Below are positions 11,505 to 34,574 of a stretch of 64,000 nt of DNA, piece after piece. Location: positions 19,970 through 83,969 of the forward strand of contig JBMDXA010000091.1 of the NCBI GenBank assembly GCA_048594725.1, written 5' to 3'. How positions within the stretch are numbered: position 1 is the stretch's first letter; every line of letters starts with the position of its first letter. The notes below the pieces were generated by a model. The model worked only from the letters and a program-made list of their open reading frames with translations, was not told the origin of the DNA and made no database searches. The position numbers were made by a program, and so were the translations under genes. Source of the stretch: Candidatus Kapaibacteriota bacterium (lineage in GTDB: Bacteria; Bacteroidota; Ignavibacteria; OLB7).

Positions 11505-11564
11505 TGCCGGGGGATGGCCTTTGGGTCATCCCGCTGCCGCCGCAACTGCCGCAGCAGAGTTTCA

Positions 11565-11597: not shown

Positions 11598-11639
11598 CAT
11601 ACCCCCGCTACCATTTCTCCACCGTTGTTCTTCCAGTCC

Positions 11640-12053
11640 ATGAGCCACGATTCACTCTACGAGAGCTTCCTGCATACCACCTATATCGTCCACTCCCCCG
11701 CCGGGCCTATCCGGCTTCGTATCGGAACGCGCGAGCCGGCGATAGACCGGTTGCTGGAGCACTACGGTGCCCGCGAATGGGCGTTTATCACCGCCTGGAA
11801 TCCCGATGCCCGCCCGCTCTCCCGCAAGGAGAATCTGGCGCGGAACCAAGAGCTTCGTGCCATGCTCCTTGCAGGAGGTTTCGATCCGGTTCCGGCCGAG
11901 GGGGCCGGCGACGATGGGAGCTGGGAGCCGGAGGAGAGCTTCTGGGTGGCCGGCCTGGCCGCCGACGAGGCGCTGGAGCTTGCACGCCGTTTCCGGCAGG
12001 CCGCCATCGTGACCGGCCTGCGCTCGGGTGCGCCCCGGCTCCGCTGGTGCTAG
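11640..12053 (+). CDS. DUF3293-family protein
   Basis: Internal ATG of track ORF 11514..12053 (MSHDSLYESFLHTTYIVHSPAGPIRLRIG...EWAFITAWNP...). The FITAWNP motif and a size of about 137 aa fit DUF3293. The family assignment is from memory. Confidence 0.55.
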   Translation: MSHDSLYESFLHTTYIVHSPAGPIRLRIGTREPAIDRLLEHYGAREWAFITAWNPDARPLSRKENLARNQELRAMLLAGGFDPVPAEGAGDDGSWEPEESFWVAGLAADEALELARRFRQAAIVTGLRSGAPRLRWC

Positions 12054-12271
12054 GGGCGCTCTCCCCCGCTGATACAGCCACAGCCCGCACGGTGCCTGGC
12101 ATAGAGGGGGGGATGCTGATTTCAACGCACTCGAAAAAAGGCTATACTTGCACGCGCCCGCCGGAGCATCCGCCGGGCGCGTGCCATGTACGATTCCTGG
12201 CGCTCTTCCGCGCCCCATTCCGTTCGATGCCTTCTGAACCCCGAACCGACGTTGCAACAAGCCGAGCCCCG

Positions 12272-18434: not shown

Positions 18435-18508
18435 AACGGCGGGAGGAGATATCGCTCCATCCCGCCGTATGCCCTGGCAATGCTAGCTCAACTGATGTGA
18501 AGTCCGCT

Positions 18509-19141
18509 CTAGTACTTCACCGAGCAGCCGTACGGCTGGGTGCTGTTGACGGTGACCGGCTTTCCCGCCATCGCCTCGTCGAGAGCCGCTGCAACGTAGT
18601 TCTTTGCTTTTGCCACGTCATCCACCTCGGTGGAGCGGATGTCATCGATAGCGCCGTTGTACACCAGCGTCCCCTCGGGGTTGATAACGAACATATGCGG
18701 GGTGGTGCGGGCGCTATAGGCCTTGCCCACCGTGCCATCGGCATCGAACAGAACCGCCGTGGGGGCCGCGCCCATCTCCTTTACGGTCTGGTTTGCCTCA
18801 TCACCGGTGGAGTATCCCTGCTTTCCGGGGGCCGATGAGATGATCGAAAGCCACACCACACCTTTGTCGGTATACTGCTTCTGAAGGTTCTGCATGTTCT
18901 TGCTGTCGTAGTGCTTCTTCACGAACGGGCAGCCATGGTTCAGCCACTCCAGCACCACGAACTTTCCGCGCAGATCGGAGAGCTTGTGCTCCTTGCCGTA
19001 GCTGTCCATCAGGGTGAAATCGGGGGCGGGTTTGTTGACCTCGGACATGCCGGATGCATCGGCCGGACGGTAGGTGGCGGCGCTCCAGCCGATCGCGGCG
19101 ATCAGGGCCATCCAGACGACATAATGGAACGGGCGTTTCAT
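18509..19141 (-). CDS. Secreted thioredoxin-fold (redoxin/AhpC-TSA-like) protein
   Basis: Signal peptide MKRPFHYVVWMALIAAIGWSAA, then ...FVVLEWLNHGCPFVKKHY... with a thioredoxin-like fold (single Cys in a CPxV context). 210 aa. Confidence 0.8.
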   Translation of the reverse strand: MKRPFHYVVWMALIAAIGWSAATYRPADASGMSEVNKPAPDFTLMDSYGKEHKLSDLRGKFVVLEWLNHGCPFVKKHYDSKNMQNLQKQYTDKGVVWLSIISSAPGKQGYSTGDEANQTVKEMGAAPTAVLFDADGTVGKAYSARTTPHMFVINPEGTLVYNGAIDDIRSTEVDDVAKAKNYVAAALDEAMAGKPVTVNSTQPYGCSVKY

Positions 19142-19319
19142 TGGTTCCTCGTAGTTGGGGTTGAATGAATCGATAGCAATGAGATGGGAAGATCCGGAGA
19201 GGGGCCGTAATCTCCCTGAGATTTTTTATGGATATCCGGGCCGGGGAGGGGGTGGAGTCTCCTCCGCCCGCCGTTCCGCCGGTATCTGCCAGGGGTGGAC
19301 TAGCAGGCAGCCGGGAGCA

Positions 19320-20213
19320 TCACTCGGCATTTTCCACCGGCAGATCGATCTCCATCGCCTGTATTCCCTTCTCCCTGTCCCACGCCGAAGGTGTATACAG
19401 CACCCCCTGAAGGCGTTCCACGGGAGCGGATGCATAGGGAGAACGGGCAAGACGAATGATAAGGCTGCCATCGGCCTGCGCCGTTTCCTGCGCTGCCGAA
19501 TGGTCGATCATCCCCTCCTCGCCCGGGAAAAACGCCGCCGATGAGGGGATGGAGAGGGATGGGTCGGACGGGACAAGCCGCAGGATGAACCCCTCTCCGC
19601 TGCGCAATGCGCTGGCGCTCCACCCCTGCAACGGGACCGGAACCCGGCCGCGCGCGATTGTGATAGGGGTGCCCCACTCGCTCTCCCGGCCGGCGGGGGT
19701 GGAGACAGCCGGAAGCCGGAGTGCCAGATCGGCCTTTCCCGGAATGCACACCTCATTGCAGACGAGCCATGAGGCAGAGGCCGCAATCGTGTACGTCTCC
19801 GCCGGTTTCAGCTCCGCCGGGGGGATGATCTCCACCGGGAGGAGAAGCGTGCCGCCATAGCCGTAGCTGACCTCCGGAGCCTCTCCGAGCCGTTCCGGGA
19901 CGGGCCATTCCACCTCTCCCGCACTCCACCCCTCCGGCAGCCGCCACTCGATGGATGTGGGCATCCCGGCATCGCCGGGGTTGCGCCAGTAGGTATGCCA
20001 GCCATCCTCCATCACCAGCCGGAGCGCCACATGAAACGGCTTGCCGGGCTGAACCGAGACGGTCTCGCAGACGAGTTCGGCATCGACATGGGGTGTGGAG
20101 ACCGGTTGCGCCGGCAGCCGGGAGGCGGCCAGAAGCAGCGCCAGACCTGGGAGGAGGCGATGCCATCCTCCTGTGCGAGGGGAGGCGTGGTTGAGGTTCG
20201 GATATCGCGACAT
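19320..20213 (-). CDS. Secreted DsbD N-terminal-domain-like (thiol:disulfide interchange) protein
   Basis: Internal ATG (MSRYPNLNH...GWHRLLPGLALLLAASRLPAQP signal) of track ORF 19320..20450. A conserved Cys pair (CNEVCIP) sits in an Ig-like beta region, as in nDsbD/DsbC-family domains. The family call is tentative. Confidence 0.6.
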   Translation of the reverse strand: MSRYPNLNHASPRTGGWHRLLPGLALLLAASRLPAQPVSTPHVDAELVCETVSVQPGKPFHVALRLVMEDGWHTYWRNPGDAGMPTSIEWRLPEGWSAGEVEWPVPERLGEAPEVSYGYGGTLLLPVEIIPPAELKPAETYTIAASASWLVCNEVCIPGKADLALRLPAVSTPAGRESEWGTPITIARGRVPVPLQGWSASALRSGEGFILRLVPSDPSLSIPSSAAFFPGEEGMIDHSAAQETAQADGSLIIRLARSPYASAPVERLQGVLYTPSAWDREKGIQAMEIDLPVENAE

Positions 20214-20660
20214 ATGTTCTCGTTTGTGCCGGTACCGCCGGTTTGGTTCCCGGCCGGGGCGAAAAACCACTCTGTTCCCGTCGATGTCCCTACCGGTAGC
20301 GACGGCTCGCATCTCCCTGCTGACTGCCATCACGGAGCGGCTTTTACCGGAGGAACTTCTCTTGCACCGGACGCAGGGAACGCTCCGGTCTATCGTTGTG
20401 CCCCCTCCTCCCTCTCCGCAATCATACGTTCGCGGCCCGGTAATCATCAATGTTCGGACGCGGAGTTGGAGAAAATAAGTGTCGTAACGCGTATATTATC
20501 TGTTGCAACGGGAATCGTTGCCAGTCGAATGGCGTTGCCTCCGGGATGACGATTCGATTTCCATTCGAAGTGTCTTTGTAGCCGGACTCTACGTATGTTT
20601 AGTATCGAGTCCTTAATCCTGTCAACCTCACACTACTCCCATTCAGCAGGAGAACTGTCC

Positions 20661-21299
20661 ATGAAGAATATGATTGCAAGAGGAGCCGCCATCGGCATGT
20701 TCGCTCTGGCACTGGCATCCTGCGGCGGCGTCGGCGACGCCCCGGAAGCCAAGACCGATTCGGCCGTCACGGTGAAGGAGGCCACTCCTGGGGCCGGCGC
20801 CACGTTCGCGATCGACACCTCGCGCAGCAAGATCGGCTGGAAGGCCGCAAAGGTTTCTCTGGCGCACGACGGCGGGTTCCGGAACTTCAACGGTACCATC
20901 ACCGTGGCCGGAAACCAGGTCAGCAATGTGAAGATCAACATCGATGCAACCAGCATCTGGTCGGATAACGACAATCTGACCGGCCACCTGAAGGGGGACG
21001 ACTTCTTTGCGGTGGACAAGAACCCGGCAGCTACCTTCGAGGCCAGCCAGTTCACGCCGGTGGATACCATACCGGGTGTCACCCATATGGTCACCGGCAA
21101 CCTGACCATGCACGGGCAGACCAACAGCGTCACCTTCCCGGCCACGATTCAGGTTGGAGCGGACATGGTTACCGCCAAGGCCGATTTCATCATCAAGCGG
21201 AAGAGCTGGGGAATCGTCTACACCGGCAAGCCGGATGATCTTATCTCCGAAGACGTCCGCATCATCTTCGACGTGACGGCGGTCAAGCCGGCAGTGTAA
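20661..21299 (+). CDS. YceI-family lipoprotein (polyisoprenoid-binding periplasmic protein)
   Basis: MKNMIARGAAIGMFALALASCGG lipobox, then YceI-like ...KIGWKAAKVSLAHDGGFRNFNGTI...TGHLKGDDFF...TGNLTMHGQTNSVTFPATIQ... Confidence 0.85.
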   Translation: MKNMIARGAAIGMFALALASCGGVGDAPEAKTDSAVTVKEATPGAGATFAIDTSRSKIGWKAAKVSLAHDGGFRNFNGTITVAGNQVSNVKINIDATSIWSDNDNLTGHLKGDDFFAVDKNPAATFEASQFTPVDTIPGVTHMVTGNLTMHGQTNSVTFPATIQVGADMVTAKADFIIKRKSWGIVYTGKPDDLISEDVRIIFDVTAVKPAV

Positions 21300-21471
21300 T
21301 CGGGGAATATACGGACCGATCGGTTTTTCGACAGAGGGGAGGCAACTCCCCTTTTTTATTGGGCGGATAGTGGCGCCATCGCTCTCTTGCGAAACGAACA
21401 TCGCCCCGGCTCCTGTACAGGAACGCGGGGCGATTTCCATTTCGGGTCTGCCGGCTACCGGCGGGAGGTTC

Positions 21472-24400
21472 CTACGCATCCTCCCCATAGGCCACCGCGC
21501 GCGGGCTCGGCGGAAACGGGGCGGGAGTTGTGGCCTCGGCCGGGGCCAGTTCCTTGGAGAGATAGGAGTAGATCGCCGGGATCACGTAGAGGGTCAGTCC
21601 TCCGGAGAAGACCAGCCCGCCGATCACCGCGATACCCATCGAGACGCGGCTCTCGGCGCCGGCTCCAAGCGCAAGGGCGATCGGGAGGGTGCCGAGGATG
21701 GTGGCAAGGCTGGTCATCAGGATCGGGCGGAAACGGGATGCCGAGGCATCGATGATCGCATCGCGCACGTTCAATCCCTCGTTCTTCCGCTGGTTGGCGA
21801 ACTCCACGATCAGAATGCCGTTCTTGGTCACCAGGCCGATCAGCATGATGATGCCGATCTGGCTGAAGATGTTCAGCGTCTGGCTGAAGTACCAGAGCGA
21901 CAGCAGCGTTCCGGCCAGTGCCAGCGGCACCGTCAGCAGGATGATGAACGGATCGCGGAAGCTCTCGAACTGCGCCGCCAGGATCAGGTAGATCAGCGTC
22001 AGCGCGAAGATGAAGGCGAAGATCAGGCTGGAGGAGCTTTCGGCGTAATCGCGCGAGGGTCCGGCCAGATCGGTGGAGAAGGATGCATCGAGCGTCTTGG
22101 AGGCGATACGTTCCATTTCCGCTATTCCCTCTCCCAGCGTGCGCCCCTCCGCCAGGTTGGCCGAGACCGTGGCCGAGACGTAGCGGTTGTAGCGGAAGAG
22201 CTGCGGCGGGCTGCTCTGCTCGCTGATCTCCACAAGGTTGTCCAGCTGGATAAGCTCGCCGCCGCTTGCGCGGGCGGAGATCGCAAGCAGATCGAACGGA
22301 TCATTCCGATCCTCGCGGATCAACTGCCCGATCACCTGATACTGCTTCCCATTTTTCATGAAGTACCCCAGGCGCTGCTCGCTGAAGGCGAGCTGAAGGG
22401 TCTGGGCGATATCGATCACGGAGATGCCCAGGCTGCGCGCCTTTTCCCGCTCGATGTTGATCTGCACCTCGGGCTTGTTGAACTTCAGGTTCAGATCCAC
22501 GAACTGGAACATGGAACTGTTCTGCGCCTCGTCCATGAAGCCCGGCAGCACCTTCTTCAGATCGTCCAGCGTGGCCGCCTGAATCACGAACTGCACCGGC
22601 ATACCGGCGCGGCGGTCGCCGATGGTGGGCTCCTGCGAGCCGAAGGCGCGCGCGCCGGTGAGCTTCCGCACCAGGCCGTTCACCGACTCGTAGATCTGCT
22701 GCTGCGAGCGTTCCCGCTCCGTCTTCTGCTTCAGGATCAGGGTGATATTGCCGGTATTGGCCGATCCGGAACCGGGGGCGGTCATCGCGATCACCGCTTC
22801 CTTTTCCGGAATGGAATCGTTGATGAGCTGCGCCAGCTCGGTCATGTAGGTCTGCATGAACTCGAAGGTGGCCCCCTCCTGCGCGGTTGCCGAGATGCGG
22901 AGGCGCCCGCGATCCTCCAGCGGAGCAAGCTCCGAGGGGATGGTGGAGCCGATCAGGTAGATCAGCCCTGCGGAGGCCACCATGATGACCGGCGCCAGCC
23001 AGCGCGCTTTCATGAAGGTGGTCAGGCTGTTGCGGTACCCCTCGGTAAAGCGATGGAAGAAGGGTTCGGTCTTCTCGTAGAACCAGCTATGCCCCTCCCT
23101 GCGAAGCATCCGGGTGGAGAGCATCGGCGTAAGGGTAAGCGCCACGAACGCCGAGATAAGCACCGAGCCGGCGATCACCACGCCGAACTCGCGGAAGAGC
23201 CGTCCGGTGAAGCCTTCCAGGAAGATCACCGGCAGGAACACCGCCGCCAGGGCAACGGTGGTGGAGACCACGGCGAAGACGATCTCCTTGGAACCGGCCA
23301 GGCCGGCCTCCATCGGCGTCATCCCCTCCTCGATCTTCGTATAGATGTTTTCCAGCACCACGATGGCATCGTCCACCACCAGGCCGATCGCCAGCACGAT
23401 ACCGAGCAGCGTCAGCACGTTGATGGAGAAGTCGGCGACGTACATGATGAAGAAGGTGCCGATCAGCGATACGGGGATCGCCAGGATCGGGATCAGCGTG
23501 GAGCGCCAGTCGCGCAGGAAGAGGAAGATGATAAGCACCACCAGGCCGAACGCGATGATGATGGTCTCCACCACCTCGTGGATCGAGGCGCGGATATACT
23601 CGGTGGTATCGAACCCGAGCCCCACCTTGATATCCTCCGGCAGATCCTTCTTGATCTCCTCCAGGCGCTTGTAGACCTCGTCGGCGATGGCGACGTTGTT
23701 GGCGCCGGGCTGCGGCAGGATGGCGATGCCCACCATCGGCACACCGTCGCGGCGGAGCGCGCTGCGGGTGTTCTCCGGTTCCAGCTTCGCGTAGCCCACA
23801 TCCTCCAGGCGCACGATCCGCCCATCCACCGTCTTGATGATCATCTTGTTGAAGTCATCCGGCGTCTCCAGACGTCCCAGCGTGCGCACGGTCAGCTCCG
23901 TGGAGTTTCCCTCCACCTTGCCGGAGGGGAGCTCCACATTCTCCTTCTGGAGGGCATTCCGGATATCGGAGGGGGTGAGCGTATAGGCCGCCAGCTTGGC
24001 CGGGTCCAGCCACAGACGCATCGAATACTTCTTCTCTCCCCAGATATTCACGGCGCTGACGCCGGGGATGTTCTGGATGCGCTCCTTCAGCATGTTGGTG
24101 GCGATCTCGTTCACCTCCAGCGGATCGCGCTTGGCGCTCTCCACGGTGAAGAAGAGGATCGGGTTGGCATCGGCGTCGGCCTTGGAGACCACGGGCGGTT
24201 CGGCATCGGCCGGAAGGTTGCGGAGGGCGCGGGAGACGCGGTCGCGCACGTCGTTGGCGGCAGTCTCCAGATCCACATCCAGCTCGAACTCCACGGTGAT
24301 GTTGCTCCGCTGCTCGCGGCTGGTGGAGGTCATCGTGCGCACGCCGGCGATGCCGTTGATGGATTCCTCCAGCGGCTCGGTGATCTGCGATTCGATGACG

Positions 24401-24570
24401 TCGGCATTGGCGCCGGCATAGGTTGTCGCCACCGTGACGATGGGGGGATCAACCGCCGGGTACTCGCGGATGCCGAGCGAATAAAAGCCGATAGCGCCGA
24501 AGATGATGATGACAATCGACATGACGATCGCCAGCACGGGGCGCTGGATGCTCAGGGATGATAAGCTCAT
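21472..24570 (-). CDS. Efflux RND transporter permease subunit (AcrB/HAE1 family)
   Basis: 1032 aa starting MSLSSLSIQRPVLAIVMSIVIIIFGAIGFYSLGIREYPAVDPPIVTVATTYAGANADVIESQITEPLE..., the canonical AcrB N-terminus with 12 TM and two large periplasmic loops. Confidence 0.95.
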   Translation of the reverse strand: MSLSSLSIQRPVLAIVMSIVIIIFGAIGFYSLGIREYPAVDPPIVTVATTYAGANADVIESQITEPLEESINGIAGVRTMTSTSREQRSNITVEFELDVDLETAANDVRDRVSRALRNLPADAEPPVVSKADADANPILFFTVESAKRDPLEVNEIATNMLKERIQNIPGVSAVNIWGEKKYSMRLWLDPAKLAAYTLTPSDIRNALQKENVELPSGKVEGNSTELTVRTLGRLETPDDFNKMIIKTVDGRIVRLEDVGYAKLEPENTRSALRRDGVPMVGIAILPQPGANNVAIADEVYKRLEEIKKDLPEDIKVGLGFDTTEYIRASIHEVVETIIIAFGLVVLIIFLFLRDWRSTLIPILAIPVSLIGTFFIMYVADFSINVLTLLGIVLAIGLVVDDAIVVLENIYTKIEEGMTPMEAGLAGSKEIVFAVVSTTVALAAVFLPVIFLEGFTGRLFREFGVVIAGSVLISAFVALTLTPMLSTRMLRREGHSWFYEKTEPFFHRFTEGYRNSLTTFMKARWLAPVIMVASAGLIYLIGSTIPSELAPLEDRGRLRISATAQEGATFEFMQTYMTELAQLINDSIPEKEAVIAMTAPGSGSANTGNITLILKQKTERERSQQQIYESVNGLVRKLTGARAFGSQEPTIGDRRAGMPVQFVIQAATLDDLKKVLPGFMDEAQNSSMFQFVDLNLKFNKPEVQINIEREKARSLGISVIDIAQTLQLAFSEQRLGYFMKNGKQYQVIGQLIREDRNDPFDLLAISARASGGELIQLDNLVEISEQSSPPQLFRYNRYVSATVSANLAEGRTLGEGIAEMERIASKTLDASFSTDLAGPSRDYAESSSSLIFAFIFALTLIYLILAAQFESFRDPFIILLTVPLALAGTLLSLWYFSQTLNIFSQIGIIMLIGLVTKNGILIVEFANQRKNEGLNVRDAIIDASASRFRPILMTSLATILGTLPIALALGAGAESRVSMGIAVIGGLVFSGGLTLYVIPAIYSYLSKELAPAEATTPAPFPPSPRAVAYGEDA

Positions 24571-24585
24571 AAGGTCAGGCGATCG

Positions 24586-25668
24586 TTAAAGTTCTTGGAG
24601 TTCGGTGATCTTCAGGGTGCTGCCGGGGCGCACCTGGAGGATGCCGGAGGTTATCACCGTGTCGCCGGGGGTCAGCCCGTCGGTGATCTGGATGCTGCTG
24701 GCGGTGCGGGAACCTATCACCACTTTTCTGGACTCGGCCTTTCCCTCCTTGGAGACGAAGACGCTCGCCCCCTCAAGTTCCGGAATCAGTGCCTGGGTGG
24801 GGACCATCAGGGCGTCGTCGGCGCTCTTGAGCACCAGGCCGATCTGGGCGAACGCTCCGGGGAAGATGGTGCCGCCGGAGTTCTGGCAGAGGGCGCGCAC
24901 CTGGAGTGTGCGGGTGGTCTGGTCGATACGAGGCTCCACCGCATAGACATTACCGGTGTAGTCCTTGTCCGATCCCTGGATCTTGAAGGTGATCTTGTTG
25001 CCGGGGCGGACCAGGCTGTAATACTTCTCCGGCACCGAGAAATCGATCTTCACCGGGTTGATGCTATGCAGGCTGGCGATCTTGGTGGTGGGGGATACAT
25101 AGCTCCCCTCGCTCACATAGCGGAGCCCGATGGTGCCGGCGAACGGGGCACGGATCTCCGTCTTGGCGATCTGCGCCTTGATGAGGTTGATCTCCGAGAC
25201 GGCGGTGTTCAGCTCGTTCAGGGCCACATCGTACTCGGCCTCGCTGATGGCGGCGCGCTCGCGCAGGGCGCGCTGGCGGGTTTCCTTTGCTGCGGCGAGC
25301 TCCTTGCGGTAGACCGCCCGTTCCAGCTGTGCGCGGAGATCGGCGTCGTTGATCTTTATCAGCAGCGCCCCCTTGCTCACGTTGGCCCCTTCCCGGAACA
25401 GGATGCGGGTGATCTTTCCCGGCACCTCGCTCTGAAGGTCCACCTGCTCGTTCGGTGCCACCGTTCCGGTCACCAGAATACGGTCGTCCAGGGTCGATTG
25501 CTGGAGCACATAGGCTTTCACGTTCACCGGGCCGCCACCGCCCCCCCTTCCCCTGGAGGGAGCCGGGGCCGAGCTGGCGGAGGAGGAGAGAAGCTTCGGA
25601 AGGGCCAGCCCGGCAAGAACCGCCAGGGCCACCAGTCCGATCGTGATACGTTTCGCTCGTATAGTCAT
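24586..25668 (-). CDS. Efflux RND transporter periplasmic adaptor subunit (membrane fusion protein, HlyD family)
   Basis: Internal ATG MTIRAKRITIGLVALAVLAGLALP (TM anchor) of track ORF 24586..26097. It has coiled-coil, lipoyl/beta-barrel and MP domains (...VTGTVAPNEQVDLQSEVPGKITRILFREGANVSKGALLIKIND...). It lies 15 nt upstream of the RND permease. Confidence 0.9.
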   Translation of the reverse strand: MTIRAKRITIGLVALAVLAGLALPKLLSSSASSAPAPSRGRGGGGGPVNVKAYVLQQSTLDDRILVTGTVAPNEQVDLQSEVPGKITRILFREGANVSKGALLIKINDADLRAQLERAVYRKELAAAKETRQRALRERAAISEAEYDVALNELNTAVSEINLIKAQIAKTEIRAPFAGTIGLRYVSEGSYVSPTTKIASLHSINPVKIDFSVPEKYYSLVRPGNKITFKIQGSDKDYTGNVYAVEPRIDQTTRTLQVRALCQNSGGTIFPGAFAQIGLVLKSADDALMVPTQALIPELEGASVFVSKEGKAESRKVVIGSRTASSIQITDGLTPGDTVITSGILQVRPGSTLKITELQEL

Positions 25669-26135
25669 ACGCTCACTCTGAGTATGGGGTAGATATGCCT
25701 GAAAATCGATGGAGGGATATCCGGGAACAGGCCGGGGTGATATCCGCTCGGATTGTATCACAGACGCATGTCCGTGTTGATAATTATCGTAGAAAGATCG
25801 TGAACCGGGGATAAAGATCCCCGTTCCCCCTTGGTACCAACTAGTAGCGGCCATATCGGGCGCGGAGGGATGCCGGCCGCGGCGGATGGAAATGCGGGTT
25901 GCGGAACCGGAGATGGTAGCTGATCCATCCCATCGTACCCTGGAATGCCGGTACTGGAATCCGGGGTGATCCGCGGTACGTTCAGGGAGGTCGGGAAGCC
26001 GTATCAGCATTAGTGCCGCCAAAGCCAGTTCGGTTCCATGGCATACCCGTGCCCGCCATACGGCGAATGCCCCGTACCAGGGTGTGGTACGGGGCATTCT
26101 GTGCGGAGCCCGTTCGGGACGGTATGTATGAGCCC

Positions 26136-27737
26136 CTAGCGGGTCACTGCAAAACGGATGGTGCCGGTGCGGCCCCCCTCCTCCACCAGCGCGAAGTAGA
26201 GCCCGGCGGGAAGGGTGGCGGCATCCACGTTCTCTTCATAGGTTCCGGCGCCCCGGTTCCCCAGATCGCGTCTCATCACGGTCTCCCCCAGGGTGTTGGT
26301 GATCCGGAGCGTGGCGTTGCCGCGTCCGGCCAGGGTCATCCGGATCGTGGTATGGTCCCCGGCCGGGTTCGGGGCCGCCGACATGCTCATGCCGGTCTCC
26401 GCCGCCGGTGCTTCCGGCGCCGATGCCGGGACCGAAGCAAAGCTGCCGTTGATGTAGTAATCATCCAGCAGCCTGGTGATAATGTTCTCGAACTGGGACA
26501 TGGCTGCCGCACCATCCGGAACTCTCGTCGCATGGCGGCCGCCGCCCTTGCCGGTGGTTTTGGTAGTGGAGGGAATCGAATCCAGCACCACATACGCCAC
26601 TGTGAAGTAGGCGGTATCGCCGGGGTGCATGGAGAAGGTGGTGCTTCCCAGCAGTGTCCGTTTGTCGCCGATAGCGTTGGAACCATCGGCCTTGGTGCCG
26701 GTGGTCATGAATTCATAGCGTTGTCCGGAGATGGAGGGATCGGTTTCGATGATCCAGTCCGGGAACGCTCCCACCCTCCCCTCGGTCCGGTAGCTCATCC
26801 GATTGTTCATATCGACAAATCCGTTGGCATCGGTCATCGGAGCCTCGATGATCGTCATGCCGAGTGCGCCGAACTGGCTCATGGCAAGATCGTCCCAGAC
26901 GTACGCGGCGCGAAGTTCAGGCCGTTCGGCGTAATACCGGGTGCGGTCATTGTCGGGCATGCCTATCTCGGGATCGCTGACCTGTGCGGCCACGCAATCA
27001 TGGAGCGTATCGGAGGAGGTATTGACGATCTGGTATTGGATGAGCACCACCGGGGCATAGAGGCCATCGGCCCAGCCAAGGGTGTTCTGCTGGATTTCGA
27101 GTCCCAGCGGAAATCCCAGGCGGGTGCTGTCGCGTCGTTCGTAGACATCAAGATCTCTATCGTCGAAGCGGGAAACGATCTGTTCATCGGCGCCGGGGAT
27201 GAACGCGGGGGCGGAATGGAGCCCCTGGGTGTTCCGTTGATGCACGTCCGGTTCAAAGAGCCCCGGCTGCATCGGCGTTGCGCTTGTGCCGCTTGCCAGC
27301 CAGAGAGGCCAGGCGGGCTCGGTGCCGGGCATATGTTCGCCGGTGGAACGGTTGAACTCCTCGGAATTGTACATGGAGGGCCGGGTGCCGAGCGAATCGG
27401 CGTAATACTCGCTGGGAACAGCCCAGCTTGCCCCGGAATTCGGATTGCAGGTGATGAAGGTCAGGGGGCGGAGCGAGCCATCCACCATCTTCCGGGCACC
27501 GAACCAGAGCCCCGCGCCGAAGATATAGGCCTTGCCGCTACCGCGGGGATAGGTGAATCCGCTATTCCCCCTTGCAACATCCAATCCGAACATGCCGTAG
27601 TTGCTGCTGAAGAATTCCACCTTCCCGACCTTGTTCTCCTGGTTCAGGAATTTCCGCCAGACCGGCTGTGCCGTTGTCGTCGCCGTCGCCGCGATCAATG
27701 CCAGTCCCGTGCATGCTGCTGCTAGTTGTGTACGCAT
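26136..27737 (-). CDS. Secreted hypothetical protein with a T9SS C-terminal sorting domain
   Basis: Signal peptide MRTQLAAACTGLALIAATATTTAQP. The C-terminal ~80 aa (...APNPAGDHTTIRMTLAGRGNATLRITNTLGETVMRRDL...GLYFALVEEGGRTGTIRFAVTR) has the T9SS CTD pattern. The central region carries no recognisable catalytic motif. Confidence 0.75.
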   Translation of the reverse strand: MRTQLAAACTGLALIAATATTTAQPVWRKFLNQENKVGKVEFFSSNYGMFGLDVARGNSGFTYPRGSGKAYIFGAGLWFGARKMVDGSLRPLTFITCNPNSGASWAVPSEYYADSLGTRPSMYNSEEFNRSTGEHMPGTEPAWPLWLASGTSATPMQPGLFEPDVHQRNTQGLHSAPAFIPGADEQIVSRFDDRDLDVYERRDSTRLGFPLGLEIQQNTLGWADGLYAPVVLIQYQIVNTSSDTLHDCVAAQVSDPEIGMPDNDRTRYYAERPELRAAYVWDDLAMSQFGALGMTIIEAPMTDANGFVDMNNRMSYRTEGRVGAFPDWIIETDPSISGQRYEFMTTGTKADGSNAIGDKRTLLGSTTFSMHPGDTAYFTVAYVVLDSIPSTTKTTGKGGGRHATRVPDGAAAMSQFENIITRLLDDYYINGSFASVPASAPEAPAAETGMSMSAAPNPAGDHTTIRMTLAGRGNATLRITNTLGETVMRRDLGNRGAGTYEENVDAATLPAGLYFALVEEGGRTGTIRFAVTR

Positions 27738-27881
27738 GATTGAGTTTTCCCGTGTATCGTGATCTTCTGTTGTTGCTGTATTCGAAGGCCTTCTGAGGTA
27801 CCGGTCTCGTACAAGGAACGATCTGCTGTTCGCTTGTTCTCACCGGGCGCGGCATTTTTTCAGTTATTTAACAGGCTGTTT

Positions 27882-28529
27882 TTACGGATTTTTTAATTGC
27901 AGGCGAAACGCCCCGCGATCCACGTTTACGACCGTGTCGGTGGAGGGACTATACCCCTTGAATTCGAACGTCCCCACCATCACTTTTCGCTCCTCGTCGA
28001 TTTTTACCACGCGTACCGAGCCGGCCGAACGCTCCGTTCCGGTGCTGTAGGATTCCGGATATCCGGCATTGATCCGCCTGTCGTAGGAGGCGCCATATTT
28101 CGGCGGTATGGTGGAGTCGAACTGTTTGGGCGCGGAATATTGCGCGTTGAAGACGTAGGTGCCGGTATCCCGTACCGCATCCATGCGAAGGGAGATCACT
28201 TCGTAGTCGCGCGTATTCAGGCCGGCACGGGTTGCCTGGATCGTCAGATAATATCCCTGCGCTGTGCGGCGGTTATGAAAGATGGGGCGGAGAACCTCCG
28301 TGGTGAAAGCCGTTTCGCTTCCGTTCACGATGGCAAAAATCGAATCTCCCGGAGCCTCGATAAATCCGGGAGATGAGACGATCGAATCGATATTGATGAC
28401 TATCTCCCTGCGGGGAGTATCGATGCCGAGCGGATCGCCGCAGGAGCAGAGGGGAAGAATAGTGGCGGCCAGCGCCACTGCTCCGAGCATCGTCCTGCGC
28501 AGCCGGGATGCAATGCTGATGTTCTTCAT
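27882..28529 (-). CDS. Hypothetical lipoprotein
   Basis: MKNISIASRLRRTMLGAVALAATILPLCSCGDP lipobox. 215 aa, beta-rich, no identifiable motif. It is co-directional and tightly spaced (16 nt) behind the anti-sigma gene. Confidence 0.6.
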   Translation of the reverse strand: MKNISIASRLRRTMLGAVALAATILPLCSCGDPLGIDTPRREIVINIDSIVSSPGFIEAPGDSIFAIVNGSETAFTTEVLRPIFHNRRTAQGYYLTIQATRAGLNTRDYEVISLRMDAVRDTGTYVFNAQYSAPKQFDSTIPPKYGASYDRRINAGYPESYSTGTERSAGSVRVVKIDEERKVMVGTFEFKGYSPSTDTVVNVDRGAFRLQLKNP

Positions 28530-28544
28530 GAATATTCCTCGCGA

Positions 28545-29993
28545 TTAAAATCCGATCGCAAATCCGAGGTGCGCGTTCAGGTTGGTGCTCGTATAGATCT
28601 GGCCGCTCTGCTCGGTCCAGAGGAACCAGGAGGAGAGTCCTCCCTGTAATGCCAGCATATCCACCGGCCGGTATTCCAGGTTCAGCCCGAAGGTGCCGAG
28701 AGGGCCCAGCAGATCGGAGCCGGTGAGCGCCGCCCCGGCGCCGAACTCCAGGCCGCCGGAGAGCGCATGGGTGCGGAACAGATCCGAGCCGAGCAGAACG
28801 CGCCCGTAGCGGACCGTGGGGGACTGTTCGATCTGGAGATCGACGGCGCGCCCCGGCTGGCCGCTGTGGTAGACCTGCGAGAACTGCGTCTCGCCGATGC
28901 TGGCCCCAAGCTCCATGGAGGAGAAGGGGGAATCCTCGCCGCTGAACCGGTAGCTGACGAACAGGTCGCGATCGAACAGGATGCTGCGGCTGCCGTTGAG
29001 GCCATAGACTCGGGGGAGGGAAAGCCGGAAGTGATCGCGCATCCCGGCCTGCCAGGGGCCCACTCCCCCATCCTCGGCACCATACTGGCTCAGAAGCGAG
29101 GCGCCGCTGGAAACCGCCTGGGCGTTTCTATCGGGCCGGGGGGCCGCTGCCGGGGCCTGCGGACGGCTCATGGCAAGGGTCTGCGGCGCAACCGGCGTGA
29201 TCTCCGGTGCCGAGGGCTTTTCCGGCTCTGCCGGGAGGGATGACTGTCCGCGCAGGAGAGGCTCGTTCACGGCAGCCGGCGTGCTGGCCGGAGAGATGAT
29301 TCTCTGCCGGCGCGGGGCCGCCGTTGTGCCGTTGCGGGTTCCGGCCTGCTCTCTCGAGCGAAGCTCGGCGATCTGCGCCAGCGCCTCCCGATGCTCCCGG
29401 GCAAGCGATGCCAGTTGCGCGCGTGCTGCTGCCAGCGAGTCCCCCATGCCGGCAACGATCATCGTCTCCGATGCCCTGGCGTCCGGCTTCTGTTCCGTTG
29501 TGATGGTTCCTTGTGTGGTATCGTGCCAGAGCAGATAACCGGTTCCCACGCCGAGCGCCACCAGCATGATCCCGAACAGGATATTGCGGAGCCAGAGCGC
29601 GGAGAACCCTGCGGCGGCAGCGGGGAACACCACCGGTGGTATCCCTGCGGGAGCGGCGCCCGCCGGGGAGGGGGGGGGGCCTCCGAATTCGCTGTCGATA
29701 GCGCTCAGCCCCGCCAGGATGCCGGCATCGGCGGCGGGTGGCGGGGTGATGCTGCCGGTCATGGCGGAGAACGCACGCGACATTCTGATCTGTTGCAGGA
29801 GCATGCCGCGCCGTTCCGGGGAAACGGCCAGCACGTGCATCAGCTCGGCCACCCTGGTTTCGTCCTGGAGGTCGCCGTTCAGTAGTGCGGTTATCTCTTC
29901 GTTGATGCTCATTGGGTTATCGGGATTTCGGTTCACCGGATCTTCTCTGTCAGGCTTTACGGCCGGGTATGCATGGGGGGGAGGGGTTCGCAA
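28545..29993 (-). CDS. Putative anti-sigma factor: N-terminal cytoplasmic anti-sigma helix region, single TM, Pro/Ala-rich linker, C-terminal beta-rich domain ending in Phe
   Basis: The track ORF starts at TTG 29993, 1 nt after the sigma gene stop; an internal ATG lies at 29912 (MSINEEITALLNGDLQDETRVAELMHVLAVSPERRGMLLQQIRMSRAF...). TM segment LFGIMLVALGVGTGYLLW. The C-terminal ~180 aa show alternating hydrophobic beta-strand patterns and end ...LGFAIGF. Gene order and coupling with the ECF sigma support the role. Confidence 0.6.
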   Translation of the reverse strand: MRTPPPHAYPAVKPDREDPVNRNPDNPMSINEEITALLNGDLQDETRVAELMHVLAVSPERRGMLLQQIRMSRAFSAMTGSITPPPAADAGILAGLSAIDSEFGGPPPSPAGAAPAGIPPVVFPAAAAGFSALWLRNILFGIMLVALGVGTGYLLWHDTTQGTITTEQKPDARASETMIVAGMGDSLAAARAQLASLAREHREALAQIAELRSREQAGTRNGTTAAPRRQRIISPASTPAAVNEPLLRGQSSLPAEPEKPSAPEITPVAPQTLAMSRPQAPAAAPRPDRNAQAVSSGASLLSQYGAEDGGVGPWQAGMRDHFRLSLPRVYGLNGSRSILFDRDLFVSYRFSGEDSPFSSMELGASIGETQFSQVYHSGQPGRAVDLQIEQSPTVRYGRVLLGSDLFRTHALSGGLEFGAGAALTGSDLLGPLGTFGLNLEYRPVDMLALQGGLSSWFLWTEQSGQIYTSTNLNAHLGFAIGF

Positions 29994-29994
29994 A

Positions 29995-30549
29995 TCAGAT
30001 TTTTCCGCCGAGCAGAGGCCCCAGAATTTTCTGGAGCGCCTGTTTGGCGCGGTAGATCCGGTTCTTCACCACATCGTGCGTTACGTCCAGTTGGCGTCCT
30101 ATCTCTTCATAGCTGTATCCTTCCAGTTCGAACAGGAGGAACGCTTCGCGGTATTGCGGCGCTATCGCCATCAGAGCCTGTTGCAGATGAGCGTTGGTAT
30201 CGGCGGCTGTTTCATCCGGCGAGTAGATCACATCGATCTTCTCATCCATGGAGGTAAGGCGTTTCCTCTCCCGTAATGCGCTGATGCAGCGGGTACGGGC
30301 CACCGTCACCAGATATCCCCGGACGTTGTACATCACCTGCCCCTCGCGGCATGCGCGGTAGAAACGGATGAAGACATCCTGGTAGATATCGGACGCGGCG
30401 TCTTCATCGCCGAGCATCAGCAGGCAGAAACGGTAGATACGCCCCTTGTACCGCTCGAAGAGCGTGGTAAAGGCGGCATGGTCTCCTTTGCCTGCCTGCT
30501 CGGCAAGAAGCTGATCGTCATGCGTGGTCTGGCGCACTGTAGCAATCAC
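29995..30549 (-). CDS. RNA polymerase sigma-70 factor, ECF subfamily
   Basis: 184 aa with region 2 (...HAAFTTLFERYKGRIYRFCLLMLGDEDAASDIYQDVFIRFYRA...) and region 4 HTH (...YREAFLLFELEGYSYEEIGRQLDVTHDVVKNRIYRAKQALQK...). Confidence 0.9.
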   Translation of the reverse strand: MIATVRQTTHDDQLLAEQAGKGDHAAFTTLFERYKGRIYRFCLLMLGDEDAASDIYQDVFIRFYRACREGQVMYNVRGYLVTVARTRCISALRERKRLTSMDEKIDVIYSPDETAADTNAHLQQALMAIAPQYREAFLLFELEGYSYEEIGRQLDVTHDVVKNRIYRAKQALQKILGPLLGGKI

Positions 30550-30938
30550 ACAAAGCTTTCCTCAGTATCCTGATGAGCGTGGGATTTCGAGTTGTACTAC
30601 AGGAACGGCGATGCCGGGGGAAGTTCTCACCGCTTCATGAATTTTTCCGGGCGGCTCCGCACCAGGGGGGAATATCACGCAAAGGCGCGAAGCCGCAACG
30701 AGACGCCGGGAAGAACGGGACGTGATGGCGCCGTTGGCCGCCGCGATAATCCCGAGGATTCTCTCCCCGGGGATTGCCGCTATCGGAACGGAATATAGCG
30801 CTCCGGCACCATGGCGGGCCAGACAATGAGATGCAGGAGAGGATGGCCGGGGCAGAGCGCGGGCCGGCATAAAAAAAGGGAGATCCGCGTTGTGCGGATC
30901 TCCCCTGCCGGTCCCGGTTCGTGCAACCGTGGAGCGTG

Positions 30939-33900
30939 TTATTCCTGCGTTCCCGCCGCGCCGCCGCGTCCCAGCGCCTCGAAGTAGCGGCGGATCATAT
31001 ACTCGTAATCCTTGGTATATCCCTGCTCGCGTCCCTGCAGTCCGTCGCGACCGTTCTGCGTGCGGTCGCTATTGGGGAGCCGGAGTTCCGGGGGGCTCTG
31101 GCGCACCACATCCACGCCCGGCTTCGACTCGCGTTCCTTCTCGAAATCCCGTTCCCGCTGCGAGCGGGTGGCATCCAGCAGGCGGCTGAGAATCCGTTCC
31201 TGGCGCTGCATCGTCTCGGGGCTCACCTGACCGGAGCCCATATCGGAGAGCACCTCTTCGATCTCCTTGGCGGCGCGTTCCAGATCGCCCAGCATATTCT
31301 TGCGGGTTCCTCCCGATTCGCGCAGCTCCTTGTTGAGATCTTCGATCGATTTCTTCACATCCTGCTGCTGGCGCGCGAGCCGCCGCATTTCCGGACCATC
31401 TCCCTCCGATCCATCCTCGCCGTTCGCACCATTCTTGCCGTTCTTTCCCTTCCCCTTGCCATCCTTTCCATTCTGCCCCTCTTTTCCCTCTCCTTCCTGT
31501 CCCTCACCCTCCTGGCCCTGTCCCTGCTGCTGCCCCTGCCCCTGCATGGCCTGGTTGATCATCTGCTGCTGGGCGGCGGCCTGCTGGAGACGCTGCTGCA
31601 TCGACATGCCCATCCCCATTCCCTGCCCCTGTCCCTGGCCGTTCTGCATCTGCTGGATGGCCTCGGCCATCATCTTGGCGGCGTTGTTCATGGAGCTCAT
31701 GGCCCCTCCCTCCTGCTGTCCTGCCCTGGAGCCGTTGCGCTGTTCAAGCGACTGGGTTGCCCCCTGCATCTGCTGGATGGCATCCCCCATTTCCTTTCCC
31801 ATCTCCGGGGTCACCGCAAAGCTCTTCTGTCCCAGATTCATCATCTGGTCGGCGATGTTCTCCATCTGCTCCTTCATCTGCGACTGCTGCTGGGCCAGAT
31901 CGCGGAACTGCTGGCTGTTCGGCTGGGTCTGCTCGGTCTGGTTCTTCAGATCCTCCTGGCGCTTGGAGAGATCCACCAGATCCTGCAACGCCTTCTTCAT
32001 CTTGTTGGTCACGTTCTTCTGACTGTTCTCCTGCATCTTCTTCTTGACGGCCTGCATCTTCTGCTTGAAGTTCTCGGCCGACTGTTTTGCCTCCTGCCCC
32101 TGTTGCTGCGCCTCCTGCATCTCCCCCTGGTCCATCTTCTCTCCGGCCTGCTCCATCGGTTCCTGGGGCCCGTTCTGTTCCAGGCTCTGCTGCGCCTGCT
32201 GCATCTCCTTGACGGGCATCTCCTCCTGCTCCCCCATCTGCTTTGCGAGTTCGGCGGCCTCCTTCTTCATCTCCTCGGCATCCTTTGCCAGATCCCGCTG
32301 CCGCTCGGCGAGCGCCTGCTGCATCCCCTTGTCGGCGGGCTCGGTTTCCTTCATCTGCTGGTTGAGCCGTTCCTGCTGGGTTGCCAGTTCCTCGGCGCGG
32401 CGGATCATCTCATCCACCTTCTGCTCGGTCTGCATCCGCTTCAGGATGTTCATCGTCCGCTCGATCGACTGGCGGAACTGCTCCTCGTTGAACTTGTAGT
32501 TCTTCATGGCCTCGGCCAGCTGCTCCGGGGTCATCTTCTCCATCTCCTGCTGCATCTTGCGCATCTGCTCCATCAGTTCGGGATTGCGCATCTCCTGGAA
32601 GAGTTTCTGAAGCTCCGAGTATTTCTCCAGCGTCTCCGGGGAGATGGCCTTGGCCTGCTGGAGTTTTTCGGTGACCTGCTTCAGGTTCTCGGCGACCTGC
32701 TGGAGCTTCTCCTGCATCTGCTGGTGCTGCTGCATCATCTGCTGGAGCTTCTGCTTGTCCTGCCAGCCGGCCTGCTGCTTGTTCTGCGCAAGCTGCTTCA
32801 TCAGCTCGCGGTTCAGCTCATCCATCTCCTTGCGTGCATCCTGGGCCTGCTTCAGCACCTTCTCCAGATCGGCATTGGCCTGGGTCTGCCCCTGTTCCGC
32901 CTCTCTGAGCACCTCCTCGAGCGAGGGGAAGCGGAGCTTGATAAGCCCCGTGCGGGCCATCTTCGGGCCGGACACGATATCGTTGTCGTACACCTCGAAG
33001 TAGAGTTCCACCTCATCCTCCGGTACCATGTCCATATCGGTCATGTTCCAGATATAGGGCACCTCCGCCGCCGTTCCCGTTCCGCGCGGGATGGGGATGG
33101 TGTGGGGCTTGAAGTCCTTCATCGGCGGGGCGTACTTGCTGGCCGCCAGGCGGTACATGATGCGCAGGCGGGAGAAGCCGTAATCGTCGGCGATGCGCAC
33201 CTGCGTGGGGAGGAGCATCGTCTGGTCGATATCGGCCGATCCCTGCGGCTGCACCAGCGCGATGGACGGGGGGCCATCAACCGAGACCCCCATGCTGTAC
33301 TGCACCGGGGAGATGTTGCCGATCCCCTCCGGCGATACCAGCTCGATGTAGTAGCTGCCATCGCGGGAGAGACGGAACCCGCCCGTTGCGGATGTGCCGT
33401 CGATCTTCATGGGGATGCGGACCGTATCGTAGGATGCCGGCGGGGCCGAGGCCGCCTCCAGCGAGGCCAGCCTGACGGTACGGGGGAAGAGCTGCACGAT
33501 GTTCGCCTTCGCCGGCTCGATGTTCGTAGTGATCTGAATGTTCACCGCCGACCCGCGCATGCCGCTTACATCGCCGACGTTGTCCGGGAGGCGCTCCAGT
33601 CCCCGCCCGGTGTAGGAGGGGGAGCTGAGCGTGGCGCGGAGCAGGCGGATGTCCGGGCGTTCCACCACGGTGAATGTATGCTCGGGTGTGCGTACCGGGC
33701 CGGAGGAGGCGCTGTAGACCGTGGTGGCCTTGATCGCCGGAAGGGTATGGCGGAAGTTCCCGGCCGAGTCGATACGGATCTCCACTTCCTCCGGGGCCGC
33801 CTCTCCGCTCTGAAGCGAAAGTTTCACCGTGCGCGGAGGAATGCCCGCCGCATGCACCACGATCTCGGCCGAATCCCCCCGGACCAGCCGCCGGTCACCG

Positions 33901-34574
33901 GGGGCGATCGTAAGGGTGAACGGGGCGGGCGTTACATAGAGCGTGTTGTAGTTGACAAGACGGTCCAGCGCCCCCTGATAGGTCGCGGGCATGGAGAGGA
34001 ACAGGGCGCTGACCACGAGCACGGCGGCCAGAAAGAAGAGCAGCGCCCGCTTGCGCTCGTCGCGCTCGATGATGACCGTATAATCGTACTGGCGGAGGGG
34101 CTCACCCTGCACCGCTATCGACGCCTCTACAAGCTCCAGGGAATAGCCGGGGGCAAGCCTCCCCGCGTGCACGGTACGATAGAGCTGGAGGGTATTGATA
34201 AGGCTGTCACCCACATCCGGAATCCGGGTTCCCACGCGCCGGGCGATGGTGTCGTCATCCTGCCCCCTGATGATGCCCAGATAGCGTCCGAGCGATGGGA
34301 GGATCATCCAGAGCGCCAGAGCCGCGTTCGTGGCAACGGTTCCCCGGAAGAGGACCGTGCGCCCGGCCGGTTCCAGCCCGCCGATGGCCTCGATGGAGAC
34401 CGCCAGGAGCCAGACGACGAGGGTTGCGGTGAGGGCGTTGATGATCCCGGTCTGTACCGCAATGCCATGCTCCTTGCGGCGCACATGGTGGATTTTTCCT
34501 GTCAGTTCGGAGTAGAGCGAGCCTGTATTCATCGTGGTTCCGTTATCGCCGTATGCTATGCGGGGATGCTTCAC
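30939..34574 (-). CDS. Large membrane-anchored protein (1211 aa): N-terminal 3-TM region, ~450-aa beta-rich extracytoplasmic region, ~600-aa Gln/Glu/Lys/Met-rich coiled-coil low-complexity region with Gly-Gln and Gly-Lys tracts, conserved-looking C-terminal ~110 aa
   Basis: TM segments LTATLVVWLLAVSIEAIGGL, AALALWMILPSLGRYLGII and ALLFFLAAVLVVSALFLSM. The long helical region reads ...QQMMQQHQQMQEKLQQVAENLKQV... with tracts ...NGQGQGQGMGMGMSMQQ... and ...GKDGKGKGKNGKNG.... The C-terminus is ...QRQERILSRLLDATRSQRERDFEKERESKPG...YEYMIRRYFEALG. The antisense track ORF 30921..34652(+) is Leu/His-rich junk. Confidence 0.8.
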   Translation of the reverse strand: MKHPRIAYGDNGTTMNTGSLYSELTGKIHHVRRKEHGIAVQTGIINALTATLVVWLLAVSIEAIGGLEPAGRTVLFRGTVATNAALALWMILPSLGRYLGIIRGQDDDTIARRVGTRIPDVGDSLINTLQLYRTVHAGRLAPGYSLELVEASIAVQGEPLRQYDYTVIIERDERKRALLFFLAAVLVVSALFLSMPATYQGALDRLVNYNTLYVTPAPFTLTIAPGDRRLVRGDSAEIVVHAAGIPPRTVKLSLQSGEAAPEEVEIRIDSAGNFRHTLPAIKATTVYSASSGPVRTPEHTFTVVERPDIRLLRATLSSPSYTGRGLERLPDNVGDVSGMRGSAVNIQITTNIEPAKANIVQLFPRTVRLASLEAASAPPASYDTVRIPMKIDGTSATGGFRLSRDGSYYIELVSPEGIGNISPVQYSMGVSVDGPPSIALVQPQGSADIDQTMLLPTQVRIADDYGFSRLRIMYRLAASKYAPPMKDFKPHTIPIPRGTGTAAEVPYIWNMTDMDMVPEDEVELYFEVYDNDIVSGPKMARTGLIKLRFPSLEEVLREAEQGQTQANADLEKVLKQAQDARKEMDELNRELMKQLAQNKQQAGWQDKQKLQQMMQQHQQMQEKLQQVAENLKQVTEKLQQAKAISPETLEKYSELQKLFQEMRNPELMEQMRKMQQEMEKMTPEQLAEAMKNYKFNEEQFRQSIERTMNILKRMQTEQKVDEMIRRAEELATQQERLNQQMKETEPADKGMQQALAERQRDLAKDAEEMKKEAAELAKQMGEQEEMPVKEMQQAQQSLEQNGPQEPMEQAGEKMDQGEMQEAQQQGQEAKQSAENFKQKMQAVKKKMQENSQKNVTNKMKKALQDLVDLSKRQEDLKNQTEQTQPNSQQFRDLAQQQSQMKEQMENIADQMMNLGQKSFAVTPEMGKEMGDAIQQMQGATQSLEQRNGSRAGQQEGGAMSSMNNAAKMMAEAIQQMQNGQGQGQGMGMGMSMQQRLQQAAAQQQMINQAMQGQGQQQGQGQEGEGQEGEGKEGQNGKDGKGKGKNGKNGANGEDGSEGDGPEMRRLARQQQDVKKSIEDLNKELRESGGTRKNMLGDLERAAKEIEEVLSDMGSGQVSPETMQRQERILSRLLDATRSQRERDFEKERESKPGVDVVRQSPPELRLPNSDRTQNGRDGLQGREQGYTKDYEYMIRRYFEALGRGGAAGTQE

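Follow-up and report, generated by a model that had tools for sequence, protein, structure and literature searches.

Seven co-directional genes occupy positions 21472–34574 on the minus strand of the window, i.e., of the whole 64-kb stretch of Candidatus Kapaibacteriota DNA that was analyzed. The middle part of this run is formed by the genes for an extracytoplasmic function (ECF) sigma factor, a candidate anti-sigma factor, a DUF6252-type lipoprotein, and a type IX secretion system (T9SS) cargo protein, and it is flanked by a gene for a giant DUF4175 membrane protein upstream and by the adaptor and permease genes of a resistance-nodulation-division (RND) pump downstream (Table 1). An earlier note on this DNA had named seven minus-strand open reading frames (ORFs) here, and all of them are present at or near the positions it gave; its domain calls (ECF sigma, RND permease, adaptor, T9SS C-terminal domain (CTD), and lipoprotein) were upheld by Pfam and NCBIfam models. 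The total of eight genes that it reported is reduced to seven, the sole extra ORF (30562–30870) overlying the sigma promoter/terminator region and being ignored by an independent gene caller. Three starts were corrected on the basis of homolog lengths and the independent gene call. For the anti-sigma gene, a TTG start 1 nt past the sigma stop is replaced by ATG 29912, as in all 22 homologs, and thus an 82-nt gap follows the sigma stop. The large membrane protein starts at M15 of the original frame and has 1197 rather than 1211 aa, and for the adaptor the start is ATG 25668, so that 467 nt separate its gene from the cargo gene. The adaptor ORF remains open for 143 codons 5' of its true start (25669–26097, minus strand), across the hairpin that follows the cargo gene; a gene caller that was run on a truncated contig took this stretch for a gene, an artifact of annotation.

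Table 1. Genes, domains, and transcription signals of the minus-strand run (positions in the window)
Feature	Position	Strand	Basis
ECF sigma factor, 184 aa	29995..30549	-	Sigma70_r2 and Sigma70_r4_2; NCBIfam sigma70-ECF, 90 bits
Dma-like anti-sigma candidate, 455 aa	28545..29912	-	Pfam and NCBIfam: no match
Predicted barrel domain of the anti-sigma candidate	28548..29066	-	Ends ...HLGFAIGF, signal of the β-barrel assembly machinery (BAM) type
DUF6252-type lipoprotein, 215 aa	27882..28529	-	Pfam DUF6252, 37 bits
T9SS type-A cargo, 533 aa	26136..27737	-	Por_Secre_tail
DUF4175 membrane protein, 1197 aa (outside the module)	30939..34532	-	PF13779
RND periplasmic adaptor, 360 aa (outside the module)	24586..25668	-	TIGR01730 (RND_mfp), 262 bits
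HAE1-type multidrug RND permease, 1032 aa (outside the module)	21472..24570	-	ACR_tran, 985 bits
P1, ECF-type promoter of the sigma gene	30603..30629	-	TGAGAACTT, 13 nt, CGTTC
P2, second ECF-type promoter	27817..27842	-	TGAGAACAAGCGAACAGCAGATCGTT
Intrinsic terminator of the DUF4175 gene	30876..30906	-	13-bp stem with 8 GC pairs, then T-run
Stem-loop, probable 3' end of the module transcript	26065..26099	-	Perfect 15-bp stem, 37 nt past the cargo stop

The comparison covered Kapaibacteria/Chlorobiota-type metagenome-assembled genomes (MAGs), from which 13 distinct loci were collected as neighborhoods of anti-sigma homologs with identities down to 32%, and each window protein was searched against these loci by tblastn. 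Domains were assigned with Pfam and NCBIfam models and folds with AlphaFold2 (AF2) models and Foldseek, so that gene order, promoters, terminators, and predicted fold and topology were all established in silico. The nearest named relatives are MAGs of Candidatus Kapabacteria/Kapaibacterium, Chlorobi, and Ignavibacteriae; Kapaibacterium belongs to the class Eximiradiia of the Bacteroidota according to the NCBI taxonomy. Three of the records (L007, L009, and L016) are titled "uncultured Alphaproteobacteria bacterium" yet encode T9SS sorting-domain proteins and the module, and are apparently mislabeled taxonomically. The closest relative of the window locus (L001, the same as L009) is among them, with protein identities of up to 93% between L009 and the window.

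Wherever the contig allows, the genes for the sigma factor, the anti-sigma candidate, the DUF6252 lipoprotein, and one or two T9SS cargo proteins are co-linear in all loci (13/13). The anti-sigma gene is located directly 3' of the sigma gene in every locus, the window sigma factor is 48–84% identical to its counterpart in every related locus, and both the lipoprotein and the cargo genes are kept throughout. Tandem doubling of the cargo gene was observed in four lineages (L003 12228–15844, L004 12012–15727, L008 5425–8852, and L010 12388–15809), and in three of them (L003, L008, and L010) the second copy is equipped with an ECF-like promoter of its own. The genes for the DUF4175 protein, an S9 peptidase, GcvT, the adaptor, and the permease stand beside this core only in the closest relative, and in the other 12 loci tblastn revealed neither DUF4175 nor the RND pump in synteny with the sigma gene. 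The earlier note had taken the entire cluster for one regulon and had itself proposed conservation of gene order among relatives as the test; the absence of synteny from 12 loci therefore defeats the single-regulon idea on the note's own terms. Nor is the co-directional run a single operon, as it is split by the terminator after the large gene and by the hairpin after the cargo gene. What stands is an envelope-signaling module centered on the sigma/anti-sigma pair.

The module is delimited by two predicted sigma-dependent promoters and a probable terminator. P1 is located approximately 55–80 nt upstream of the sigma start and has the shape of a classic ECF −35/−10 pair; in each of the 13 other loci, the pattern TGAGAACTT-N13-16-YGTY precedes the sigma gene at the same position. 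Within the window, P1 is the only match to GAGAACTT (at most one mismatch) that is followed by a −10-like pentamer at a P1-type offset, and four other GAGAACTT matches, in which a pentamer occurs farther downstream, are all within coding sequence. P2, a slightly degenerate copy of the P1 motif, is located in the gap between the lipoprotein and cargo genes, approximately 80–105 nt upstream of the cargo start, and the same motif precedes a cargo gene in 10 loci. A scan of 281 kb on both strands for TGAGAAY-N13-18-YGTY yielded 28 matches, including 12 located up to 200 nt upstream of a sigma gene, 10 upstream of a cargo gene, and 6 elsewhere. Thus, of the three places where the earlier note had suggested looking for an ECF promoter, those upstream of 30549 and 27737 each carry one, whereas no motif was found upstream of the DUF4175 gene; the search of the 467-nt gap upstream of the adaptor gene was negative as well. 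A promoter pattern with a fixed 16-nt spacer gave zero matches, as the window spacer is in fact 13–14 nt long. One more ECF-motif match, at window position 62073, falls inside the prs coding region and was set aside as a chance occurrence.

On the 3' side, the stem-loop that follows the cargo gene has a predicted free energy of −37.9 kcal/mol (z = −5.3), and in most other loci the last cargo gene has a similar hairpin on its 3' side; the stem-loop is probably the 3' end of the module transcript. Given the positions of the promoters and terminators, the transcription unit therefore comprises the sigma, anti-sigma, lipoprotein, and cargo genes. In one locus (L015 14047–15587), a third copy of the motif precedes the gene of a different T9SS-CTD protein (~450 aa) just downstream of the module, which suggests a regulon enriched in T9SS cargo.

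The anti-sigma candidate consists of an N-terminal helical domain (residues 1–76), a transmembrane helix (~103–129), a long helix (146–193), a linker (194–282), and a predicted barrel (~283–455). Pfam and NCBIfam gave no match for either terminal domain, nor for five homologs (E-values up to 10) or ten further family members and weak matches. In an alignment of 23 homologs, the N-terminal 75 residues are the best conserved part (68% mean column identity) and the C-terminal 170 residues are also conserved, with a variable middle. Hydropathy reveals exactly one hydrophobic segment (~103–129), and this segment is helical in the AF2 model, which further contains four N-terminal helices, a confident 48-residue helix, and eight long strands with a predicted local distance difference test score (pLDDT) of 80–90. 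The linker is rich in Ala, Pro, and Ser, varies in length and sequence among homologs, and has a pLDDT below 50. A near-invariant (R)DSL motif (window 29430–29440, residues ~158–161) stands near the N-terminal end of the periplasmic helix, itself predicted with confidence, in an otherwise variable region; the motif may be a site for a protease or a point of contact.

The C-terminal region was correctly recognized by the earlier note as β-rich and ending in ...GFAIGF. Its strands are 11–21 residues long and amphipathic, with alternating hydrophobic and polar faces, and the terminal Phe is nearly invariant in the alignment. BAM substrates typically end in such a conserved aromatic residue. The best 20 Foldseek matches are all transmembrane β-barrels, namely OmpA, NspA, Ail, OmpX, and OprF-N (E-values from 3e-6 to 1e-4), the Thermus major outer-membrane protein (OMP), OpcA, a Legionella type IV secretion system porin, OmpG, and a designed barrel; the top 50 include membrane β-barrel proteins exclusively and no soluble barrels. 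A profile of the barrel retrieved 43 representatives among 1.84 billion proteins, none of them outside this small family. The barrel is nearly always located at the C-terminus of proteins of 410–500 aa, and hence the fusion is the invariant state of the family. The C-terminus is thus predicted to form an eight-stranded outer-membrane β-barrel, and the whole protein may span both membranes. Of the two possibilities raised for this region in the earlier note, the outer-membrane-type β domain is the one that fits these data, and the soluble partner-binding β-sandwich is disfavored.

The latter possibility amounts to a conventional single-pass anti-sigma factor, in which the C-terminal β domain, lipocalin-like or a sandwich, would act as a soluble sensor in the periplasm and bind the lipoprotein or a different partner. 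It would agree with the usual anti-sigma design and with the absence of a sequence match between the barrel and OMP families, and AF2 can over-predict barrels from alignments as shallow as the one used here (23 sequences). Nonetheless, it would leave without an explanation the purely membrane β-barrel composition of the Foldseek list, the long strands with one hydrophobic face, and the conserved terminal aromatic residue, whereas a disordered tether of 90 residues and a helix of 48 residues would be needless for a membrane-proximal sensor. We therefore regard a soluble sensor as unlikely and retain the outer-membrane barrel as the preferred prediction.

The architecture, which the earlier note considered odd, is not in itself new, since it was described in Bacteroides in 2022–2024 (PMC9308784; PMC10927553). 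An anti-sigma factor of Phocaeicola vulgatus was predicted to span the periplasm and to end in a C-terminal outer-membrane barrel (Evans et al., 2022; PMC9308784), and the family was later named Dma, for dual membrane-spanning anti-sigma, with members only in Bacteroidota (Pardue et al., 2024; PMC10927553). For the Dma1/Das1 pair of B. thetaiotaomicron (BT_4721/BT_4720), the span across both membranes was shown experimentally: Dma1 binds an ECF21 sigma factor via its first 40 residues, and its barrel is located in the outer membrane (PMC10927553). NigD lipoproteins are among the members of the Dma1 regulon, and one of them is encoded beside the pair. In vesicles, Dma1 was found mostly in the form of C-terminal fragments (PMC10927553). 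Related systems include Dma2, Reo/EcfO of B. fragilis, and M0N98_03760/61 of P. vulgatus (PMC10927553; PMC13088901; PMC9308784).

The window locus resembles these systems in several respects. It belongs to the same phylum; the gene follows that of an ECF sigma factor; an uncharacterized lipoprotein gene stands beside the pair (NigD2/BT_4719 there, DUF6252 here); and the order of elements is the same, i.e., a short cytoplasmic N-terminal domain, one inner-membrane helix, a long disordered periplasmic linker, and an outer-membrane barrel of eight strands at the C-terminus, the last being a prediction in the window protein. There are also differences. Dma1 is annotated by OMP_b-brl_2, whereas the window barrel gives no Pfam OMP_b-brl_2 signal (E-values up to 10); the window family is tiny (43 representatives) and confined to Kapaibacteria-like MAGs; the lipoprotein is of the DUF6252 type and not a NigD; and the window protein, known here from its sequence and model, has an additional, confidently predicted 48-residue periplasmic helix. 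Furthermore, the conserved output of the window system is a T9SS-secreted protein with its own predicted sigma-dependent promoter, whereas no link to T9SS has been reported for Dma. With respect to the sigma factor, only generic ECF models of NCBIfam matched, the Bacteroidetes-type subfamilies remaining below their cut-offs. The window locus is a sequence-distinct variant of the Dma class, and both its operon and its two promoters are well defined. A more distant parallel is provided by the FecA/FecR/FecI system, where an event at the outer membrane is likewise passed to an inner-membrane anti-sigma factor and an autoregulated ECF sigma factor; in the window, however, the outer-membrane element and the anti-sigma factor form one polypeptide, with neither a TonB-dependent transducer nor a FecR domain.

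Alternatively, the 455-aa protein could be an envelope tether or structural protein that shares the sigma operon without being an anti-sigma factor or, in a variant of this explanation, could be cleaved constitutively, its barrel being an ordinary small OMP. The dissimilarity of its N-terminal domain to known anti-sigma domains would be accounted for in this way, and the vesicle fragments of Dma1 itself (PMC10927553) offer a precedent for cleavage. However, neither form explains why the gene invariably lies directly 3' of an autoregulated ECF sigma gene or why conservation is highest in the N-terminal 75 residues, a four-helix unit predicted on the cytoplasmic side, and no other candidate regulator is conserved at the locus. 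Both forms are decidedly unlikely, and an anti-sigma role of the 455-aa protein is preferred.

The two remaining products of the module are an uncharacterized lipoprotein and a surface-directed protein. The lipoprotein gene starts 16 nt past the anti-sigma stop, and a lipobox, a C(G/V)DPL motif, and a DUF6252 match are present in the window lipoprotein as well as in all nine orthologs extracted; neither a solved relative nor similarity to NigD was found. The cargo protein consists of a signal peptide, a β-supersandwich domain of ~360 aa, a helix, and the C-terminal sorting domain, which scores 27.8 bits against PF18962 (cut-off 27) and 30.7 bits against TIGR04183 (cut-off 23). The sorting tail is its only recognizable family domain and is present in nearly all homologs. 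In Foldseek searches with the AF2 model (pLDDT 84), the CTD matched that of mirolase, and the large domain matched supersandwich modules, namely the non-catalytic ones of GH116 and GH94 enzymes and YidC P1, at template modeling (TM) scores of 0.2–0.3. A glycan-binding or structural surface role of the cargo is possible, judging from the model. A second T9SS cargo is encoded elsewhere in the window (3482–7858, minus strand), a 1458-aa reprolysin/M12-type metalloprotease with SBBP β-propeller repeats and a Por_Secre_tail domain, and no ECF motif was found upstream of its gene.

In the mechanism that we infer for the module, the N-terminal helical domain of the 455-aa protein would bind the ECF sigma factor and keep it inactive at the inner membrane. 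From this domain, the protein would continue through one inner-membrane helix, the periplasmic helix, and the disordered tether of ~90 residues to the eight-stranded barrel in the outer membrane. The barrel would sense a disturbance of the outer membrane or cell surface and bring about the release of the sigma factor, probably via regulated proteolysis. The freed sigma factor would then transcribe the sigma, anti-sigma, and lipoprotein genes from P1 and the gene or genes of one or two T9SS-secreted β-supersandwich surface proteins from P2. We put at 0.62 our confidence in this explanation as a whole, in which the region consists of three units without relation to one another and the middle one (~26065–30629, minus strand) is a self-contained signaling operon of Kapaibacteria-type Bacteroidota.

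Several observations weigh against this interpretation. Every sequence used comes from MAGs, and the module is known from sequence alone. P2 is weaker than P1 and is absent from some of the loci with short lipoprotein-cargo gaps. The N-terminal domain shows no detectable similarity to Pfam anti-sigma domains or, in a profile search against PDB sequences, to solved anti-sigma factors, so that the anti-sigma role is deduced solely from where the gene lies and from the topology and fold of its product. For the barrel, no OMP family of Pfam gave a match, OMP_b-brl_2 included; its Foldseek TM-scores to known barrels are moderate (0.4–0.67 on the target), and the predicted TM-score (pTM) of the whole model is 0.38. 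The barrel profile retrieves no Dma protein of Bacteroidia, and homology with Dma is therefore unproven. Finally, only generic supersandwich matches were obtained for the cargo, so no function can be assigned to it.

The DUF4175 gene upstream of the module and the multidrug RND pump genes downstream are independent neighbors. The large protein was confirmed to have the composition reported in the earlier note (19.6% Q, 12.4% E, 10% K, and 8.9% M in residues 560–1090, with MGMGMSM and (GK)n tracts). It matches PF13779 with 60 bits (cut-off 27.3), and its homologs are annotated as DUF4175; it thus falls in a named, albeit uncharacterized, Pfam family, and the novelty once claimed for it is lost. 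The Gln/Met-rich tract is common to members of its DUF4175 clade, including those without a nearby pump. The protein shares with the DUF4175/TIGR02302 family the large size and low complexity, the N-terminal transmembrane helices, and the long Gln-rich C-terminal region; the differences are that in this clade the tail is also rich in Met, Lys, and Glu, and that the gene here stands alone. In two distant genomes, the DUF4175 gene immediately follows ftsQ-ftsA-ftsZ and a DUF4159 gene (L020 4642–11381) or lies within a cluster of MoxR AAA_3, DUF58-VWA, and DUF4159 genes (L021 943–13303), and these neighbors may provide a lead to its function. The DUF4175 literature yielded only A. baumannii AdvA, which matches in a short N-terminal segment and was not used.

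The pump genes are separated by 15 nt. The permease matches the multidrug model RND_permease_2 with 1092 bits vs. 395 bits for CusA/CzcA, and the adaptor matches RND_mfp with 262 bits vs. 68 bits for CusB. The pump is accordingly of the hydrophobe/amphiphile efflux (HAE1) multidrug type and not of the heavy metal efflux (HME) type. These scores, together with the clade-wide and pump-independent Met content of the DUF4175 proteins, lead us to reject the analogy with Cu(I)/Ag(I) handling that the earlier note had drawn. Pumps of the AcrAB/MdtABC type similarly consist of a permease and adaptor pair with multidrug RND models as the best matches; the difference is that no outer-membrane factor gene accompanies the pair within the window. 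The absence of a TolC-type factor from the cluster, pointed out in the earlier note, indeed extends to all 64 kb, as determined by tblastn with the OEP protein of the relative. In L001, a gene for a 445-aa OEP (TolC-type) protein (18234–19571) overlaps the end of the permease gene; at the corresponding position, the window contains a convergent gene of the YceI family (20595–21299, plus strand) and a palindromic terminator (21333–21354). Since no OEP remnant was found in the 64 kb, either this genome lost the gene for the outer-membrane factor at this place or the lineage of the relative acquired it, and the factor that serves the window pump may be encoded elsewhere in the genome.

A single envelope-stress or metal (Cu/Ag) regulon of all seven genes, with the sigma factor controlling the Met-rich giant protein and the RND pump, is highly improbable: co-directionality, some short gaps, genuine Met-rich tracts, and the recurrence of the seven-gene order in L001 speak for it, but it is largely refuted by the missing order in the other 12 loci, and the terminator after the DUF4175 gene, the hairpin after the cargo gene, the lack of an ECF motif upstream of the DUF4175 and adaptor genes, the HAE1 rather than HME type of the pump, and the clade-wide Met-richness of DUF4175 proteins independent of pumps all stand against it. 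Elsewhere in the window, the plus strand carries two tandem genes for FKBP-type peptidyl-prolyl isomerases (9460–11504), followed by a gene for a 1355-aa TraB/PrgY/GumN-family protein with HEAT repeats (11393–15460).

For the annotation of these genomes, the analysis corrects three hypothetical-protein entries and implies that the DUF4175 protein and the RND pump should stay out of the regulon of the sigma factor. The module itself is compact, with two defined predicted sigma-dependent promoters and fixed partner genes, and with the lipoprotein and T9SS cargo it provides concrete candidates for the sensor's ligand or output. As a second, sequence-unrelated family with the same predicted architecture in a deep-branching class of Bacteroidota, it would mean that the trans-envelope anti-sigma design is either ancient in the phylum or evolved more than once. 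It is conceivable, if quite improbable at present, that this trans-envelope anti-sigma factor evolved independently and that its barrel, together with the DUF6252 lipoprotein, monitors the T9SS-anchored surface protein induced by the sigma factor. If true, the protein would be a feedback sensor, made of one polypeptide, for the deposition of T9SS cargo or the integrity of the surface layer, and it would link the cell surface directly to RNA polymerase.

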